From NCBI GenBank assembly GCA_035623825.1, contig DASPSR010000043.1, forward strand, positions 1 to 13,237: DNA of 13,237 nt. Direction: 5' to 3'. Below the pieces are notes generated by a model. The model had not been told where the DNA came from, searched no databases, and saw only the letters and a program-made list of their open reading frames with translations. Shown here one piece after another: positions 1-11,953 of the stretch; position 1 is the stretch's first letter, and each line of letters begins with the position of its first letter. A program made the translations under genes and the position numbers. The stretch comes from Nitrospirota bacterium. Lineage in GTDB: Bacteria; Nitrospirota; UBA9217.

Positions 1-252
1 CCATTCCTTGACGGATATTTGAAAATCTATCTTCTCGTTCCCGTTGTTGATGACGGAGAATGCGCCGCTCTTTGCACCGCCGCCCAGGTCCAGGGACGTC
101 GGCTGTATCTGAAAGTCCGCGGCAAATGCCGGGGGGATGAAGACCGCCATGATCAGCAGTCCGGCCAGCAACCGAACGCCCTTTTTTAACGGCGCCATGC
201 GCCCCGGGCGAAACCCGGTTGACAGCCTGCGGTCACAACAATTTTTTTCCAT
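1..252 (-). CDS. Fimbrial/pilus assembly chaperone (PapD/CsuC-like), 5' part only; runs off the window edge
   Basis: Not in the ORF track; translated by hand from ATG 252 (CAGGAG SD at 260-265; alternative ATG 198): MEKNCCDRRLSTGFRPGRMAPLKKGVRLLAGLLIMAVFIPPAFA-ADFQIQPTSLDLGGGAKSGAFSVINNGNEKIDFQISVKEW. Signal peptide ending AFA, then the chaperone pattern F-x-I-x-P-x-x-L-x-L...N-x-G...Q-I-x-V-x-x-W; lies directly downstream of an SCPU pilin. Confidence 0.85.
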   Translation of the reverse strand, partial: MEKNCCDRRLSTGFRPGRMAPLKKGVRLLAGLLIMAVFIPPAFAADFQIQPTSLDLGGGAKSGAFSVINNGNEKIDFQISVKEW

Positions 253-358: not shown

Positions 359-1097
359 TCAATACGTGATCATAACGGTAATGGTATCGGAATGAGCGCC
401 CGCCTTCGCATTCTGGTACGATGTTTGTGGGATCGAGATGCCAACAGGGATCGATACCGACGACGAGAACCCGCTGCCCGTCATGTTCGCCGGACAGCTT
501 GTGATCGTGTACGCAATGGGGTCTGTCACGCCGTCGTTGCCGATCGTCAGCTTGTTTGCGTGCCCCGATGAGCAGGCGACCGCATGCACAGCGTTCATGG
601 TGCACTTCACCGACGGCGATGTGCCGTTGGCGGTCGTGCTCGGGGTGAAGGTCCCTGAGCCCGACGGATCGATGGTGAAAGACATTGAGCCGGCTGCAGC
701 AGAAGTGCATGAGTCATTGACGGTCACGCTCACGCTGTTTATCGGCAACGTTGCCGTAATAGGGGATCCCGGTCCCCCCCACGTCACGGTAATCGTAATA
801 GTAGAGCCATTCGAGTAAGTCCCAGCGGGGGCATTTTGGTAGTCCGCTTGCGCTATCTGGCTCGCAGTAGCACCGCTCGGGATCAGCAGATTAACCGCCG
901 CGCCGGCATATGTGGCACTGGGAGCGATCCCGGGCGTATACGCTATGCTGTTCGCCCCAGATTGCAATGTCCACCCGCTCGCAGGAGCCACCGTAACGGT
1001 GTACGCATTGTTCTTGGTACATGTAAATTGCATAGGACACATTTACCGCGCCCATCATTATCAGGAAACTCACTGGCAGGATATATATTATTTTCAT
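359..1097 (-). pseudogene. Two-domain spore-coat-U (SCPU/Csu-type) pilin or tip adhesin, apparently disrupted by an internal frameshifting deletion
   Basis: ORF 359..1042 has two SCPU-like halves (FTCTKN..YQNAPAGTYS..TITITVTW and VKCTMN..YQNAKAGAHSDTITVMITY) but no signal peptide. A signal peptide MKIIYILPVSFLIMMGAVNVSYA (1097-1029) lies in a different frame. Domain 1 lacks the N-terminal segment with the first Cys that domain 2 has. Confidence 0.75.
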
Positions 1098-3119: not shown

Positions 3120-3686
3120 CTAGAAATGATACGCCAAGCCGGCCTGCAGTGTGAAGTAGTCGTCGGTTATAAGGTGCCACCTGGCGTCGGCGACAAAGCT
3201 CAGGCTCGGATTAAGCTTTATTTCTATTCCTGCACCGGGGACGAATCCCAAATGAGTATCGCTCTCCGAGGATGTGCCGGGGAACGGGAAGTTCGATACT
3301 TCCACCGTATCAAAGCTTACTTCCAGCATTCCCTGTACGAAAACCTTCAGATTGCCGCTTTGGGTCGGAAGAAAGAACCGTCCGCCGATGTCAACCGGTA
3401 CACGTTTGTACGTCACATCGGAGCCGAACTCGGTAGCGCTCCACTCAAAGTAGGAGAGCTCGACTCTGCCCTGAAGATTCTTGTTGATCTGGGAGAGCAT
3501 CGCTCCGAAGCCGAATGTGACGCCGACGCCAGTATCGAAGCCTGATGCGGGTGCCGATGCGACGGCGATCGAGCCGTCAACCTCCACATCCTGCGAGGAC
3601 GATGATCCCGCGGATTTAGCAAAGGCAGTGGCCGTTATGCTACATACTATTAAGGCCGCGAGCGTGATCAGTGCGAATCTTTTCAT
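3120..3686 (-). CDS. Small outer-membrane beta-barrel protein (OmpA/OmpW-like, 8-stranded)
   Basis: Signal peptide MKRFALITLAALIVCSITATAFA, alternating amphipathic strands, GAGIE motif, C-terminal GLAYHF (BAM-type terminal Phe); GGAGG SD. Confidence 0.9.
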   Translation of the reverse strand: MKRFALITLAALIVCSITATAFAKSAGSSSSQDVEVDGSIAVASAPASGFDTGVGVTFGFGAMLSQINKNLQGRVELSYFEWSATEFGSDVTYKRVPVDIGGRFFLPTQSGNLKVFVQGMLEVSFDTVEVSNFPFPGTSSESDTHLGFVPGAGIEIKLNPSLSFVADARWHLITDDYFTLQAGLAYHF

Positions 3687-6815: not shown

Positions 6816-7184
6816 AGAAATAAACTGCACGCGGACTAAAGTCGGGGCTCCGCGTGAAGGAGCAGAGACGATTTAACCATTGCTTCGCTCCGCGCGGCCT
6901 TCGTCACATGTCTTAAAAACTGGGATTTTCTGGCCAGGGTTATAAAGAAGGATTTAAAGAGTTTTTACAGGTGGATGGTAAAAGTTCTGGGCCGACTTAT
7001 GAGTTTTCACATCCGCAACTTTTGCGTAGTTCAAGTAGGATGAAATTTTGTTATAACTTACAAACGAAAATCATGACGCATCCAAAATGATGGTTTATCG
7101 AGGTTGCCTGAAAAGCCTATACTCACGTCTATGAAAAATGCGGAGCTGATTTCCGATCGCCAAACTTATACCAACTGAAATTGC

Positions 7185-7216
7185 CGTGGGGCGCTATTTT
7201 TTTACAGCGCCCCACG
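7185..7216 (-). terminator. GC-rich hairpin downstream of the lipoprotein gene (probable terminator or 3' stabiliser)
   Basis: CGTGGGGCGCT (7185-7195) / AGCGCCCCACG (7206-7216), 11-bp perfect stem; U-tract is weak. Confidence 0.55.
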
Positions 7217-7248
7217 CAGCTCATTATTTCAAGAAATCAGGTTCTTCC

Positions 7249-8364
7249 CTATCGCACAATCAGATTTCCCTCATGGCTCAAGACCATGAATTTGTCATTC
7301 CCGGCATACTGCAGCTCGACAGCGCTATACTGACCACCACTGAGCGAACCCCCGGTCCCGGGTGTAGTGCTCTGAGCCCACTGCGGGCAAGAGGGATAGA
7401 TTCCGCCTCCGAGGATTACGGCGGCCAGCTTAGTGCCGTCCGAGGGCGAGGTAACTAGTGCCTTTTTGACAGGAAACTGCTCGCATATTTGAATCCAAAT
7501 ATTATCGATAGTTTCAATATAACCCACAATGGACTGGCCTGGATTTTGTGCAATCTTCCAACCGCCTGTACCAATGCCGGATACCGCGACAATATCACCT
7601 ACTTTGAGAGAAGTCGAAGTAGGTAGAGTGATCACGATCTGTGAAGTGCTATCAGCCAGGTATCCGGTATTTGGAACAGCCTGCACCGGAGAAGTGGTGA
7701 CATCCACCCATTTGATCCCGGCGACACTGCAAACGTAGGTCGTCGAAGTCACCTCGCCCGGCTGGAGTATGCCATCATTGGCAATGCCGCCGTTATTGCC
7801 ATTATCCAGTCCGGAGCTTACCTTTAACCCTCCATACTCACAATTGCTTCCAGATGGCTCTGAAACGATTGAAACAAGCGAATTATATCCATTTGTGCCG
7901 TTGGTGCCGTTTGTGCCGTTCGCGCCATTACAGATGTAGTCGCTGGAGGTTATCTCTGATGGATCGAGGACGCCGTTATTGTTCGTATCAAGGCCCACGT
8001 TCAGCTTGTAGCCGCCATAGGGACAGTTCGCGCCCGGGGGTTCGTTCACCACGGATATGAGCGATGACAGGCCGTCTGTGCCATTACAGAGGTAACTGCT
8101 GGAGGTTATCTCTGATGGATCGAGGACGCCGTTATTGTTCGTATCGAGGCCCACATTCAGCTTGTAGCCGCCATAGGGACAGTTCGCGCCCGGGGGTTCG
8201 TTCACCACGGATATGAGCGCTGACTGACCGTTTGTGCCGCTTGTACCAGGTCCGCCGTTCCCGCCAGGTCCGCCGTTCCCGCCATTTCCTCCGTTTGCGC
8301 CACACCCTATGAGCAGGACCACCATCGAAAATATCAGAATCATGATACTAAAAATCCGTTTCAT
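7249..8364 (-). CDS. Surface lipoprotein with collagen-like G-X-Y linkers, three Cys-bounded DxNxNG repeats (DUF7151-like) and a fibre-tip-like C-terminal domain; putative adhesin
   Basis: SD AAGGAGGG then ATG 8364; lipobox LLIG-C; GANGGNGGNGGPGGNGGPGTSGTNG; EPPGANCPYGG..GLDTNNNGVLDPSE..Y.CNG twice plus a divergent third copy; C-terminal ITLP..GD.V.V.G.G.GGWKIAQN domain. Confidence 0.85.
   Translation of the reverse strand: MKRIFSIMILIFSMVVLLIGCGANGGNGGNGGPGGNGGPGTSGTNGQSALISVVNEPPGANCPYGGYKLNVGLDTNNNGVLDPSEITSSSYLCNGTDGLSSLISVVNEPPGANCPYGGYKLNVGLDTNNNGVLDPSEITSSDYICNGANGTNGTNGTNGYNSLVSIVSEPSGSNCEYGGLKVSSGLDNGNNGGIANDGILQPGEVTSTTYVCSVAGIKWVDVTTSPVQAVPNTGYLADSTSQIVITLPTSTSLKVGDIVAVSGIGTGGWKIAQNPGQSIVGYIETIDNIWIQICEQFPVKKALVTSPSDGTKLAAVILGGGIYPSCPQWAQSTTPGTGGSLSGGQYSAVELQYAGNDKFMVLSHEGNLIVR
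7924..8219. repeat. Intragenic direct repeat, two 140-nt copies with a 156-nt period
   Basis: 7924-8063 versus 8080-8219; 6 mismatches by manual alignment (about 96% identical). Confidence 0.95.
8246..8281. repeat. Perfect 18-nt tandem repeat (2 copies) in the collagen-like linker
   Basis: CCAGGTCCGCCGTTCCCG x2, encoding GGNGGP repeats. Confidence 0.9.
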
Positions 8365-8614
8365 ATGACCCTCCTTGGGTCTGTCCGCAGTCTCGAAGTT
8401 GCTTGTCTGCCCGGACTGCAATACCAGCACGATTATTTCCATTACGATGAAGGCAAGAAAATCCAGGCCATGCGCAAAGGTCTCTATTACCTATTCCAAA
8501 CCTACCGTCTGCCTTCGAAAAAGTGAATCGCTTACCATCAGATATTGTAAATATTTGATTACACTAAGGTTTTAACGGCTTTTTCAGCTTTCCTGTCCTT
8601 GACTTTTGACCAAT

Positions 8615-8659
8615 AAAAAAGCCGAGCGTACCTGAAGCAATATCCTTCGGCAGCCCGGC
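8615..8659 (-). terminator. Riboswitch expression-platform terminator overlapping the aptamer 3' strand
   Basis: RNA GCCGGGC-UGCC-GAAG...CUUC-A-GGUA-C-GCUCGGC-UUUUUU; the 5' arm is the aptamer's P3/P1 3' strand. Confidence 0.9.
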
Positions 8660-8726
8660 TGTCTTGTCATCCAAGACCCTTTGCTTTCCGTCCCCTCCTC
8701 ACGAAGGGTTTGGCTTTATCGGGTAT
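8641..8726 (-). ncRNA. GEMM-I (c-di-GMP-I class) cyclic-dinucleotide riboswitch
   Basis: Minus strand AUACCCGAUAAAGCCAAACCCUUC-GUGA-GGAGGGGACGGAAAGCAAAGGGUCUUGGAUGACAAGACAGCCGGGCUGCCGAAGGAUA: AAA bulge in P2, GNRA (GUGA) loop, GGGACGGAAAGC junction, GGGUCU..AGACAGCC P3, 3' GCCG. Confidence 0.95.
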
Positions 8727-8734
8727 TTTACTAT

Positions 8735-8763
8735 ATTATAATAATTAATACTAAAGTTGTCAA
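8735..8763 (-). promoter_or_regulatory. Perfect-consensus sigma70 promoter driving the riboswitch leader
   Basis: TTGACA (8763-8758), 17 nt spacer, TATAAT (8740-8735); predicted start about 8728, immediately before the aptamer. Confidence 0.9.
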
Positions 8764-9016
8764 TTTCGATTTTCTGCAACTTATTAACTTAATTGCATTA
8801 TAATTTGAGTTTATTTCGTGAAAGGATTCAGCGGGGATGCCTAAAAGGGAATATCCCGATTGCAAACCGATACGCTCAAGTTCCCTGGCAGAAATCCGGG
8901 CATCCTGCTTTTTCATTAAGAAAGATTACCGACGCGTTTGCGGGGATGTCATGTTAAAATGGATGAAGTGAACCATTAAATTCGGATATAATTTGGGAGA
9001 CCAGGAGGAGAAAGTC

Positions 9017-10153
9017 ATGTCCTTGGTGATTGGCGTGCCACGGGAGACCGCGCCGGGAGAACGGCGCGTCGCCGTGTTTCCGGACGTGGTCAGGAAATAC
9101 ATCGCCCTCGGTGCCGAGGTCTGCATCGAGACAGGGGCCGGAGACGGGAGCTATTTCCACGACAAGGACTTCAACACCGCCTGCATCGTCGAGAGCATCG
9201 CCGAGGTCTTCGAGCGGTCCCAGGTCATCCTCAAGGTCCAACCGCCGGCCCCGTACGAAATCAAGAGGATGAAGCCCGGGTCCGCGGTCATAGGCTTTTT
9301 GGCCCCTTTCGATAGCATTGAGCGGGCGCAGCTCCTTTGCGAGCGAAACGTGACGAGCTTCGCCGTGGAACTCATTCCACGCATATCCCGGGCCCAGAGC
9401 ATGGACGCCCTCTCCTCCCAGGCCACCGTGTCAGGATACCTTTGCGCGCTGATCGCGGCGGAAAACTCGTCGAAATTCTTTCCCATGATCACCTCCGCCG
9501 CAGGGACGCTCCGGCCCGCCCGGGTGCTCGTCATTGGCGCGGGCGTCGCCGGGCTTCAGGCGATGGCCACGGCCCACCGGCTTGGCGCCGTCGTCGAGGC
9601 CTACGACGTGAGGCCTGAGACACGGGAACACGCCGAGTCCGTGGGCGCCCGTTTCATCGAGACCGGCGTCTCCGCCTCCGGGATGGGCGGCTATGCACGG
9701 GAGCTCACCGTGGATGAGAAAAAGCTCCAGCAGGAGAAGCTCGCAAAGGCCGTGACCCAGACGGATGTGCTGATCACCACCGCCGCGCTTCTGGGCAAGA
9801 GGAGCCCTCTGATCATTACCGATGAAATGGTCAGGAGCATGAAGCGGGGCGCGATCATCGTCGACATGGCCGCCGAGGGAGGCGGCAACGTGGCGGGCAC
9901 GCGGCCGGGCGAGACAGTCCAGATTGGCGACGTCACGATCTTCGGGCCCGTGAACCTGCCCTCGCGCATGCCGGTCCATGCCTCGGAGATGTACTCCAAG
10001 AACCTGTACAATTTCCTCGTACCGCTCATAAACGACGGGGAATTGAAACTCGACTGGAACGACGAGGTCGTCGCGGGCAGCGCCTTTACCCACGAGGGCA
10101 CGATCCGAAACGAAGGGGTGAGGAAGGCGCTGGAGGGACAGAAAAGTTCATAG
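9017..10153 (+). CDS. pntAA: NAD(P) transhydrogenase subunit alpha part 1 (domain I)
   Basis: IGVPRET..GERRVA, IPRISRAQSMDALSSQ, GAGVAGLQA, GGYARE, VDMAAEGGGN; SD AGGAGGAG before ATG 9017. Confidence 0.97.
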   Translation: MSLVIGVPRETAPGERRVAVFPDVVRKYIALGAEVCIETGAGDGSYFHDKDFNTACIVESIAEVFERSQVILKVQPPAPYEIKRMKPGSAVIGFLAPFDSIERAQLLCERNVTSFAVELIPRISRAQSMDALSSQATVSGYLCALIAAENSSKFFPMITSAAGTLRPARVLVIGAGVAGLQAMATAHRLGAVVEAYDVRPETREHAESVGARFIETGVSASGMGGYARELTVDEKKLQQEKLAKAVTQTDVLITTAALLGKRSPLIITDEMVRSMKRGAIIVDMAAEGGGNVAGTRPGETVQIGDVTIFGPVNLPSRMPVHASEMYSKNLYNFLVPLINDGELKLDWNDEVVAGSAFTHEGTIRNEGVRKALEGQKSS

Positions 10154-10234
10154 TTCGTCGATCATAGCCAAAGTCATGCGATTTCAACTGTAAATTATCA
10201 TCTATTAAATAGAGCTTTATTCCGGAGGAATACA

Positions 10235-10549
10235 ATGGAGGTCTTTGCCGCACTTTACATATTCCTGCTTGCAGCGTTCACGGGCTATGAGGTGATCGCG
10301 CGGGTTCCGGTGATCCTGCATACGCCGCTCATGTCCGGCTCCAACTTCGTGCACGGCGTCGTGCTCGTCGGCGCCATGGTCGCCCTTGGCGAGGCGCGCA
10401 CGCCCTTCGAGCAGGCCGTCGGCTTCGTGGCCGTACTGCTGGGCGCGGCCAACGCCGTGGGCGGCTACGTCGTCACCGAACGGATGCTTGCGATGTTCCA
10501 GAGCAAATCGCAGAGCGCACAGCGCAAAACGCAAAGCAGAAAGGGATAA
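10235..10549 (+). CDS. pntAB: NAD(P) transhydrogenase subunit alpha part 2 (membrane)
   Basis: VP.ILHTPLMSGSNFVHG and NAVGGYVVTERMLAMF; SD GGAGG. Confidence 0.96.
   Translation: MEVFAALYIFLLAAFTGYEVIARVPVILHTPLMSGSNFVHGVVLVGAMVALGEARTPFEQAVGFVAVLLGAANAVGGYVVTERMLAMFQSKSQSAQRKTQSRKG
10504..10545 (+). repeat. Degenerate heptamer tandem repeat at the pntAB 3' end
   Basis: CAAATCG CAGAGCG CACAGCG CAAAACG CAAAGCA GAAAGGG. Confidence 0.6.
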
Positions 10550-10576
10550 TGCCATGCGCAGATCGAAGGACCTGTC

Positions 10577-11953
10577 ATGACTGAAAAACTCCTGATCAAC
10601 ACCAGCTACCTCGTCGTTGCGGTCCTGTTCATCCTGGGGCTCAGGGCGATGTCCTCGCCTGTCACCGCTCGGCGCGGCATCGGCTGGGCAGGCATCGGCA
10701 TGGTCCTGGCCACGCTCGTCACCTTCCTCTGGCCGGGGATGAGAAATTACGCGCTCATGTGCCTCGCCCTTGCCCTGGGCGGCGGCCTCGCCTGGTGGTC
10801 TGGGGCCTCGGTCAAGATGACCGAAATGCCCCAGATGGTAGCCCTGTACAACGGCATGGGCGGGGGCGCCGCGGCCGCCATTGCCGCAATCGAACTGGGC
10901 CGCGGCCTGGCGCACGACGCCGTATCCACGGCGCTCGCGGCCCTGGGCGCAGTGATCGGCACGGTCTCCTTCTCAGGTTCCCTCGTCGCCTTTGCCAAGC
11001 TCCAGGGCATCATTCGCAGGACATTCCGCTTGCCAGGCCAGAACGCGGTCAACGCGGTCCTGGCGCTGCTCACCCTGCTCGCCGGCACTGGCATGGCTTC
11101 CGCCGAGCACGCGAGTACCGCAAAGATCGTCACGTTCTTCGCTCTCGCAGCTGTCCTCGGCGCGATCGTCACCCTGCCGGTGGGCGGTGCGGACATGCCG
11201 GTTGTGATCTCTCTCTTCAATGCCTTCACAGGCCTGGCCGTAGGGTTCGAGGGCTACGTGCTGAACAATCCGGCCTTGATCATCGCCGGCATCGTGGTCG
11301 GCGCTGCCGGCACGCTCCTCACCCAGCTCATGGCCAGGGCCATGAACCGCAAGCTCATCCACATCCTGTTCAAGCCCATCACGGGTGAGGCTCGGGCCGG
11401 CGCTGGCGTCACGGGGACGATGAAGGAAGTGGCTGCCCTGGACGCAGCGTCGATGCTTAGGTACGCGCGGAAGGTGATCATCGTGCCGGGCTACGGCATG
11501 GCCGTGGGCCAGGCCCAGCACAAGGTCATGGAAATGTTCGAGCTCCTGGAGGAGGCGGGGGTGGAGGTCAAGTTCGCGATCCATCCGGTCGCAGGCAGGA
11601 TGCCAGGCCATATGAACGTGCTTCTTGCCGAAGCAGGGGTCCCGTACGACAAGATTTTCGACATCGAAGAGATCAATGAGGAATTCGACCAGACCGACGT
11701 GGCGCTCGTGATCGGCGCAAACGACGTTGTGAACCCCGCCGCGCGCACGGACAAATCAAGCCCAATCTACGGCATGCCGATCCTGAACGCCGACCGCGCT
11801 CATTTGGTGATCGTGATCAAACGCGGCCAGGGCGCGGGCTACTCGGGCATAGAGAACGCGCTTTTCTACGCCGAGAACACCCGCATGCTCTACGGCAGCG
11901 CCCAGCAGGTCGTGAGTGAGGTGATCAAGCACATAAAAGCAATGGCGGGCTGA
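10577..11953 (+). CDS. pntB: NAD(P) transhydrogenase subunit beta
   Basis: MTEMPQMVALYNGMGG, GGADMPVVISLFN, PGYGMAV, HPVAGRMPGHMNVLLAEA, GANDVVNPAA. Confidence 0.98.
   Translation: MTEKLLINTSYLVVAVLFILGLRAMSSPVTARRGIGWAGIGMVLATLVTFLWPGMRNYALMCLALALGGGLAWWSGASVKMTEMPQMVALYNGMGGGAAAAIAAIELGRGLAHDAVSTALAALGAVIGTVSFSGSLVAFAKLQGIIRRTFRLPGQNAVNAVLALLTLLAGTGMASAEHASTAKIVTFFALAAVLGAIVTLPVGGADMPVVISLFNAFTGLAVGFEGYVLNNPALIIAGIVVGAAGTLLTQLMARAMNRKLIHILFKPITGEARAGAGVTGTMKEVAALDAASMLRYARKVIIVPGYGMAVGQAQHKVMEMFELLEEAGVEVKFAIHPVAGRMPGHMNVLLAEAGVPYDKIFDIEEINEEFDQTDVALVIGANDVVNPAARTDKSSPIYGMPILNADRAHLVIVIKRGQGAGYSGIENALFYAENTRMLYGSAQQVVSEVIKHIKAMAG

Follow-up and report, generated by a model that had tools for sequence, protein, structure and literature searches.

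A probable c-di-GMP ON riboswitch ahead of a DUF7151-stalk lipoprotein gene in an uncultured Nitrospirota bacterium

Riboswitches that respond to the second messenger cyclic dimeric guanosine monophosphate (c-di-GMP) are known in front of genes for attachment proteins. In Vibrio cholerae, c-di-GMP raises the expression of one such gene, gbpA, through the Vc1 aptamer, which forms the first 111 nucleotides (nt) of the 225-nt gbpA leader (PMC4744006). Here we describe a comparable locus in a 13,237-nt stretch of DNA (the window) from an uncultured bacterium whose nearest relatives are Nitrospirota genomes. We consider it likely that this locus is a single-gene cassette in which a c-di-GMP ON riboswitch drives a lipid-anchored protein with a DUF7151 stalk and a head of the XD1 type (Table 1). 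As in the Vc1-gbpA arrangement reported in PMC4744006, a GEMM-I aptamer stands at the very start of a long 5' untranslated region with a single gene downstream. The two differ in phylum and in the protein encoded (GbpA is an unrelated, chitin-binding colonisation factor); the present cassette also has an explicit intrinsic terminator overlapping the aptamer.

Other parallels come from Gram-positive bacteria, where PMC9481103 and PMC11124144 describe c-di-GMP-II riboswitches before COG4932 surface anchor genes in Paraclostridium and a c-di-GMP-I riboswitch with a collagen adhesion protein in Bacillus thuringiensis. There, as would be the case here, a single surface protein gene is under the direct control of a second-messenger riboswitch. 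Those proteins are wall-anchored adhesins, belong to other families and often follow tandem riboswitches, whereas the window has a single aptamer before a lipoprotein with a DUF7151 stalk. The aptamer architecture is also that of the GEMM-Ib riboswitches of Geobacter, which are described as ON switches with terminators that control extracellular functions and occur in anaerobic bacteria of the environment (PMC9481103, PMC7266159). The Geobacter aptamers carry A at the position that discriminates between ligands (PMC6140456), where the window has G. An earlier note on this DNA had put the cassette forward as the best candidate for a new system in the window. This is too strong, since c-di-GMP riboswitches before adhesin and surface-protein genes are established (PMC4744006; PMC9481103).

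The minus strand was scanned for sigma-70-like promoters from 7000 to 9100, and both strands were scanned with a looser rule requiring 9 of 12 consensus matches, with shuffled sequences for comparison. The site at 8763-8735 (-) matches the consensus at all 12 positions and is the sole sigma-70-like site on the minus strand in that interval; the looser rule gave four sites on the two strands, against 2.9 +/- 1.9 in shuffles. The aptamer begins twelve bases 3' of the -10 hexamer. It is the only Rfam match in the window: RF03167 (clan CL00126) covers 8723-8645 (-) and scores 68.0 bits, its gathering score being 59 (E-value (E) 1.3e-14). The match spans model positions 1-80 of 80, and all the helices are present.

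The terminator has a stem of 16 base pairs (bp) with two single-base bulges, followed by UUUUUUAUU. A 67-nt piece containing it folds at -27.3 kcal/mol (z-score (z) -4.36), a stability equalled by none of 200 shuffles, and the hairpin is also part of the minimum-energy structure of the first 146 nt of the transcript (-50.3 kcal/mol, z -4.65). Its 5' arm (8660-8645) lies wholly inside the aptamer, where it makes up the 3' strands of helices P2 and P1, and contains the C that we read as pairing with the ligand. Terminator and ligand-bound fold therefore cannot coexist. Transcription would start a few bases past the promoter, and the aptamer would be made at once. Without ligand, 8660-8645 would pair with 8637-8620 to form the 16-bp terminator, and polymerase would halt at the U-run (8620-8615). 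Once c-di-GMP is bound, 8660-8645 would be held in P1 and P2, the terminator would be blocked and transcription would read through the leader into the gene. Since ligand would favour read-through, the element would be an ON switch, and its geometry argues strongly for this transcriptional polarity.

The identity of the ligand can be approached from the letters of the binding site. In the Vc2 aptamer, the roles of G20, A47 and C92 in contacting the ligand have been described: G20 reads one guanine of c-di-GMP and C92 pairs with the other (PMC6140456, PMC5888326). Variants that sense c-AMP-GMP (3'3'-cGAMP) have A in place of G20, G being the letter for c-di-GMP (PMC6140456, PMC9481103). The Rfam alignment of the window aptamer has G at model position 10, immediately 5' of the first inner helix, A at 37 and C at 75, an unpaired base that precedes the 3' strand of P1. 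We read this G-A-C triplet as the canonical c-di-GMP site. The earlier note had left the choice between c-di-GMP and cGAMP open; the G at the discriminating position strongly favours c-di-GMP, and makes the cGAMP half of that proposal very improbable.

The same arrangement recurs in other genomes. A protein search in which 8,000 candidates were scored gave 303 relatives of the encoded lipoprotein at a cut-off of E<=1e-3, the closest being 78% identical and from a Nitrospirota genome. A scan of one genome per species then confirmed 122 stretches, of which the best 80 were kept, corresponding to 76 loci. Rfam was run at gathering thresholds on all 76; in seven of them the sequence upstream of the match is shorter than 500 nt, too little to judge whether a riboswitch is present. 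Two loci, both in Nitrospirota genomes, have a GEMM-clan match directly upstream on the same strand: L001, with an orthologue (75% identical), and L016, with a second DUF7151 lipoprotein that has a different head. A general link between DUF7151 and GEMM riboswitches was rejected on this count (two positives in 76).

Both L001 and L016 contain TTGACA, the aptamer, the overlapping hairpin and the U-run. In L001 the -35 hexamer and the spacing are kept and the -10 hexamer is TATATT; in L016 TTGACA is kept. Conservation of pairing was measured on the three sequences (window, L001 and L016), with partners slid by 1-3 columns as the control. The aptamer helices comprise 24 pairs, and 91.7% of the 72 cells hold standard pairs, against 33-50% when slid; for the 16 terminator pairs the figure is 93.8% of 48 cells, against 28-49%. 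In seven of the 16 terminator pairs one side varies and the pairing is retained. The GNRA tetraloop is GUGA, GUGA and GCGA in the three aptamers, and the discriminating G and the pairing C are invariant (3/3). Synteny is not kept: the window neighbours are pntA/pntB and an aspartyl protease gene, while L001 has genes for a DUF5018 protein and an alpha-amylase. Because the neighbouring genes differ between genomes, the cassette is self-contained. What the three loci have in common downstream of the switch is a signal peptide and a DUF7151 stalk, not the head. The L016 gene (L016 2887-4767) encodes a lipoprotein-like product in which three DUF7151 modules are combined with a PQQ/BamB-like propeller head and the lipobox, L-S-D-C, is atypical.

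The regulatory part (promoter, aptamer and terminator) is well supported by these sequence data. The earlier note had described a perfect TTGACA-N17-TATAAT promoter, a GEMM-I aptamer at 8726-8641, a terminator using the 3' strand of the aptamer as its 5' arm and about 250 nt of leader, and had named an Rfam covariance-model search as a check. The promoter is present as described (8763-8735, 12/12), and so is the leader (8614-8365). The covariance-model search returned the clan above its gathering score, with limits a few bases inside those given, and the 5' arm of the terminator falls entirely within the match. The regulatory reading as a whole gains from this match, from the overlap of terminator and aptamer and from the geometry conserved in two other genomes.

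Table 1. Features of the riboswitch cassette and its gene (window positions; residues are those of the encoded lipoprotein)
Feature	Position	Strand	Remarks
Sigma-70-type promoter	8735..8763	-	-35 TTGACA 8763-8758, 17-nt spacer, -10 TATAAT 8740-8735
GEMM-I clan (c-di-GMP-I type) aptamer	8645..8723	-	P1, GNRA-capped hairpin (loop GUGA), P2 hairpin; Rfam RF03167
Intrinsic terminator (predicted)	8612..8660	-	5' arm 8660-8645, loop 8644-8638, 3' arm 8637-8620, U-run 8620-8615
Leader	8365..8614	-	About 250 nt between terminator and gene
Ribosome-binding site AAGGAGG	8370..8376	-	5 nt before ATG; read from sequence
Coding sequence of the 371-residue lipoprotein P0001, stop included	7249..8364	-	Orthologues align from residue 1
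Signal peptide and lipobox L-I-G-C (Cys21)	8302..8364	-	Sequence pattern
Gly-X-Y linker 1, residues 22-48	8221..8301	-	Nine triplets; pLDDT <50
DUF7151 module 1, residues 49-93	8086..8220	-	Three strands, DxNxNGxLDxxE loop, Cys62 and Cys93
DUF7151 module 2, residues 101-145	7930..8064	-	Best Pfam stretch 101-145
Gly-X-Y linker 2, residues 147-161	7882..7926	-	Five triplets; pLDDT <50 for 148-157
DUF7151 module 3, residues 162-212	7729..7881	-	Loop longer by 6 residues
Head domain, residues 214-371	7252..7725	-	Split beta-sandwich: core 214-285 and 330-371
Head insert, residues 286-327	7384..7509	-	One degenerate BNR/Sortilin-like blade; pLDDT <50
Hairpin 3' of gene	7185..7216	-	33 nt past stop, 11-bp G+C-rich stem, no clear U-run

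The gene is monocistronic. Its start at ATG 8364 is shared with the N-terminus of the orthologue (MKRIFSIMILI) and its stop codon lies at 7251-7249. An upstream in-frame ATG at 8442, the start of the mechanically derived open reading frame (ORF), was rejected: it has no ribosome-binding site and the orthologues begin at MKR. The hairpin beyond the stop is stable (-32.7 kcal/mol for an 81-nt piece, z -4.24, 1/200 shuffles) and is probably the 3' end of the transcript.

The lipoprotein (P0001) begins with MKR and a hydrophobic run ending in L-I-G-C21, in agreement with the lipobox pattern [LVI][ASTVI][GAS]C. Most of the 15 homologues in the alignment have an L-x-[AG]-C motif here. The product would be exported and lipid-anchored at Cys21, followed by flexible Gly-X-Y linkers, a three-module DUF7151 stalk and the head. 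The Gly-X-Y periodicity is exact over residues 22-48, 95-100 and 147-161 (nine, two and five triplets), and these segments are modelled as disordered. DUF7151 (PF23657) matches over three stretches with 185 bits against a gathering score of 27.2. Each module is modelled as three strands (predicted local distance difference test (pLDDT) 82-92) and includes a 12-residue loop such as DTNNNGVLDPSE, which fits the EF-hand pattern. The D, G, L and E columns of this loop and the Cys pair of each module are invariant in the 15 homologues. Modules 1 and 2 form a 156-nt tandem duplication (7915-8226) that is 93% identical, which indicates that the stalk has recently grown by duplication of a repeat. DUF7151 found no structural relative when the full-length model was used for a fold search, and searching the PDB by sequence with the profile of the family gave nothing at E<=1.

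The last 158 residues, which form the head, match no Pfam or NCBIfam family, and NCBIfam has no match anywhere in P0001. Relatives of the head are nevertheless numerous: 2,784 cluster representatives at E<=1e-3, 592 at 1e-10 and 34 at 1e-30. Their alignments show a conserved N-terminal part, WVxVT...GDxVxVSGxGxGGWxIAQNxGQ, and a C-terminal part, TTxGxxGSxSGxQ...LQYxG, separated by none, one, two or many BNR/Sortilin-type repeats. Relatives carry PF15902/PF02012 and several matched stretches at the place of the insert; P0001 has no Pfam BNR/Sortilin match and only one degenerate repeat there, rather than several blades. The propeller appears from these sequences to be a domain inserted into the sandwich. 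The 'WD40/YVTN/BNR-like repeat' proteins of Burkholderiales and others share the stalk modules and both halves of the head with P0001, but have a multi-blade propeller between the halves and no riboswitch (0/65 loci outside Nitrospirota). Some proteins (P0203, P0201 and P0149) have, in place of DUF7151, another N-terminal stalk (with a motif like TAFTYQGRL.D....G.YD) before the same head; the head itself is thus a mobile module.

Modelled alone, the head gave a predicted template modelling score (pTM) of 0.71, with pLDDT >90 in the core and <50 in the insert. Foldseek against the PDB gave five matches at E<=1e-3, the ten best having E 3.8e-5 to 5.9e-3 and a query TM-score (TMq) of 0.41-0.50. 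The best are to the N-terminal part of the CBA120 tailspike TSP4 (7rfo/7rej; E 3.8e-5 to 6.4e-5, TMq 0.47-0.48), and a baseplate chain of Klebsiella phage KP1 also matches (TMq 0.50). Weaker matches are to the T4 baseplate (5iv5), T4 gp9 (1qex), CpaA (6o38) and T4 gp10 (2fl8), those to gp9, gp10 and CpaA at E 0.55-2.7. Predicted viral structures (BFVD) contribute 141 matches at E<=1e-3, the best with E 1.3e-11, a TMq of 0.63 and 20-29% identity, and those that are named are tail fibre, tailspike or tail proteins. The full-length model finds the same phage matches with lower TM-scores, and PHROGs gives one marginal tail-fibre match (E 0.0086).

The set gp9, gp10 and CpaA is the one that PMC8825819 lists as relatives of the XD1 beta-sandwich in TSP4-N. 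As modelled, the core of the head is a phage tail-protein beta-sandwich of this XD1 type, an assignment made by comparing the set of PDB matches, which come without the aligned target residues, with Table 2 of that paper. CpaA and StcE are described there as using the fold in glycan-binding modules, and the phage proteins as trimers (PMC8825819). This fold link suggests that the head binds a partner or a glycan, perhaps as a trimer. P0001 shares the two-sheet sandwich with CBA120 TSP4-N, T4 gp9/gp10 and the CpaA and StcE modules, but differs from the PDB entries in sequence (8-18% identity) and in that its domain is C-terminal, split by an insert and carried by a bacterial lipoprotein; trimerisation is a defining property of the phage proteins. 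The earlier statement that the protein does not match a characterised adhesin cannot be extended to mean that it lies outside known families, given its three DUF7151 modules, the 2,784 cluster representatives of its head and the phage tail-protein fold.

A number of observations count against a c-di-GMP-switched surface protein of this kind. On the regulatory side, no pair has changed on both sides in the aptamer (0/24) or the terminator (0/16), and with only three related sequences the conservation could in part reflect their relatedness, so that it is supportive but no proof. A simple terminator scan did not report the hairpin; its rule needs an unbroken stem beside the T-run, and this one is interrupted by two bulges. 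Some 190 nt of the leader (roughly 8380-8570) have no counterpart in the L001 and L016 alignment; a non-sigma-70 promoter in the leader is possible. The best Rfam model is the GGC variant RF03167 and not the canonical RF01051, in a scan whose clan filter reports the best clan member only and so hides the RF01051 score. Moreover, the equivalence of model positions 10, 37 and 75 to Vc2 G20, A47 and C92 is one that we presume from the alignment and the Vc2 numbering. The association with DUF7151 is narrow, riboswitches being found in two of 11 Nitrospirota loci and none of 65 elsewhere; the other nine Nitrospirota loci gave no GEMM-clan match in a permissive scan even at E<=1. On the protein side, the top PDB fold matches reach a TMq of only 0.47-0.50. 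Of the collagen-like linkers proposed in the earlier note, the periodicity stands and a family match does not (no Pfam Collagen (PF01391) match in P0001 at E<=0.01). Likewise, its calcium-binding-type repeats survive as three DUF7151 modules, whereas the Pfam EF-hand_5 match (residues 73-86) stays below threshold (17.7 bits against 25.9, E 0.0024).

The alternative that fares best concerns the protein. P0001 might not be an adhesin at all but a lipoprotein facing the periplasm, such as an envelope scaffold or binding protein, with a head that resembles phage proteins simply as a common beta-sandwich. The moderate PDB fold scores are compatible with this, as is the L016 paralogue, whose BamB/PQQ-like propeller is a fold common in periplasmic proteins. 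Against this, long flexible Gly-X-Y linkers and repeated calcium-loop modules typify extended stalks outside the cell; in relatives the stalk occurs together with BNR/Sortilin, LamG and collagen (PF01391) modules, and the viral tail-fibre models match with E down to 1.3e-11 at 20-29% identity. We therefore regard a periplasmic role as doubtful, although it is to be taken seriously. Exposure of P0001 at the surface, binding of a glycan or matrix and a role in attached or biofilm growth are plausible, judging from the usual targets of c-di-GMP and from the fold relatives; calcium binding, trimer formation and adhesion are likewise plausible suggestions and nothing stronger.

A second alternative accepts the switch but gives it little to do: the extra 190 nt of leader would supply a promoter or other control of its own, and the riboswitch would be largely bypassed in this genome. 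The leader is indeed long (about 250 nt, against about 70 nt in L001 and 35 nt in L016), and the extra stretch gave no Rfam match, no Pfam match in three frames and no repeat elsewhere in the window. A dominant independent promoter at 8365-8610 had been named in the earlier note as a finding that would undo its reading, and the scan shows no sigma-70-like site there on the minus (coding) strand. Nor does the leader fold into a significant structure (z -0.45), and upstream of it promoter, aptamer and terminator are all intact and close to consensus. For a long leader behind a GEMM aptamer gbpA offers a precedent, as reported in PMC4744006. A bypass is on these grounds improbable.

It is very unlikely, too, that in function the aptamer is one of the c-di-GMP-I-GGC variant class, with a ligand that is not c-di-GMP. 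RF03167 does top the clan for all three aptamers (68.0 bits in the window, 71.2 in L001 and 69.8 in L016, against 59). Its consensus, however, has G (upper-case) at model position 37, where the window has A (with a blank in the match line) and where all three aptamers have A. We take this position, A47 in Vc2, to be the one that gives the GGC variant its middle letter. With site letters G, A and C, the canonical triplet, the Rfam GGC label is therefore not a ligand assignment. A GEMM-Ib type of response, to 3'3'-cGAMP, or a response to both dinucleotides, for which GEMM-I variants of Geobacter and other anaerobes that sense c-AMP-GMP, some of them bispecific, offer a precedent (PMC7266159, PMC6140456, PMC9481103), is the least probable of all, since the discriminating position is G and not A in each of the three aptamers and PMC6140456 describes wild-type G20 Vc2 as discriminating against cGAMP.

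That the cassette stems from a prophage was rejected in view of its neighbours: pntAB and genes encoding an aspartyl protease, a glyoxalase, a beta-barrel of the outer membrane and an RRM protein. The transhydrogenase genes pntA (AlaDh_PNT) and pntB (8993-11950, +) are divergent from the cassette, with a small ORF (10235-10549) between them. Genes for envelope proteins lie nearby at 362-1042 (-), 1-252 (-) and 3123-3686 (-), none with a riboswitch; the nearby envelope set comprises a protein with a Spore-Coat-Protein-U domain (22.7 bits, cut-off 22.4), a weakly BACON-like fragment and an outer-membrane beta-barrel. The RRM_1 protein is a bacterial RNA-binding protein of 128 residues (1457-1840, +; E 8.6e-26). 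Among the other DUF7151 loci, three from Burkholderiales (Mitsuaria, Roseateles and one uncultured) have a transfer-messenger RNA (tmRNA) gene within about 1 kb of the DUF7151 gene (L014 2243-2616, L015 2188-2561 and L026 5073-5446). This adjacency could reflect either conserved synteny or a hot spot for integration.

The heads found on the riboswitch-borne stalk are of two kinds, a sandwich of the phage tail-fibre type (window and L001) and a PQQ-like propeller (L016). A more far-reaching interpretation, which we offer tentatively and hold to be unlikely as it stands, is that riboswitch, signal peptide and DUF7151 stalk together make up a conserved delivery module on which heads have been swapped within one Nitrospirota lineage. 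Its products would be c-di-GMP-induced, calcium-stiffened and possibly trimeric surface fibres, with binding heads recruited from phage tail proteins.

The regulation described here is ordinary and the switch adds nothing new to riboswitch biology; the value of the finding lies in annotation. The literature searched contained no mention of DUF7151, and a small literature search found no report of a riboswitch-driven attachment protein in Nitrospirota, the listed matches being concerned with ComFB. Promoter, aptamer and terminator together make a compact unit of about 150 nt. The fold link between the head and phage tail proteins is a clue to the role of the head, and it also shows that this sandwich can accept an inserted propeller. 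If the delivery-module interpretation were true, DUF7151 would be a general extracellular stalk and c-di-GMP the first physiological cue for it. A c-di-GMP ON switch before two DUF7151 genes would tie a large, widespread and uncharacterised family to the attached or biofilm lifestyle in the hard-to-culture Nitrospirota.

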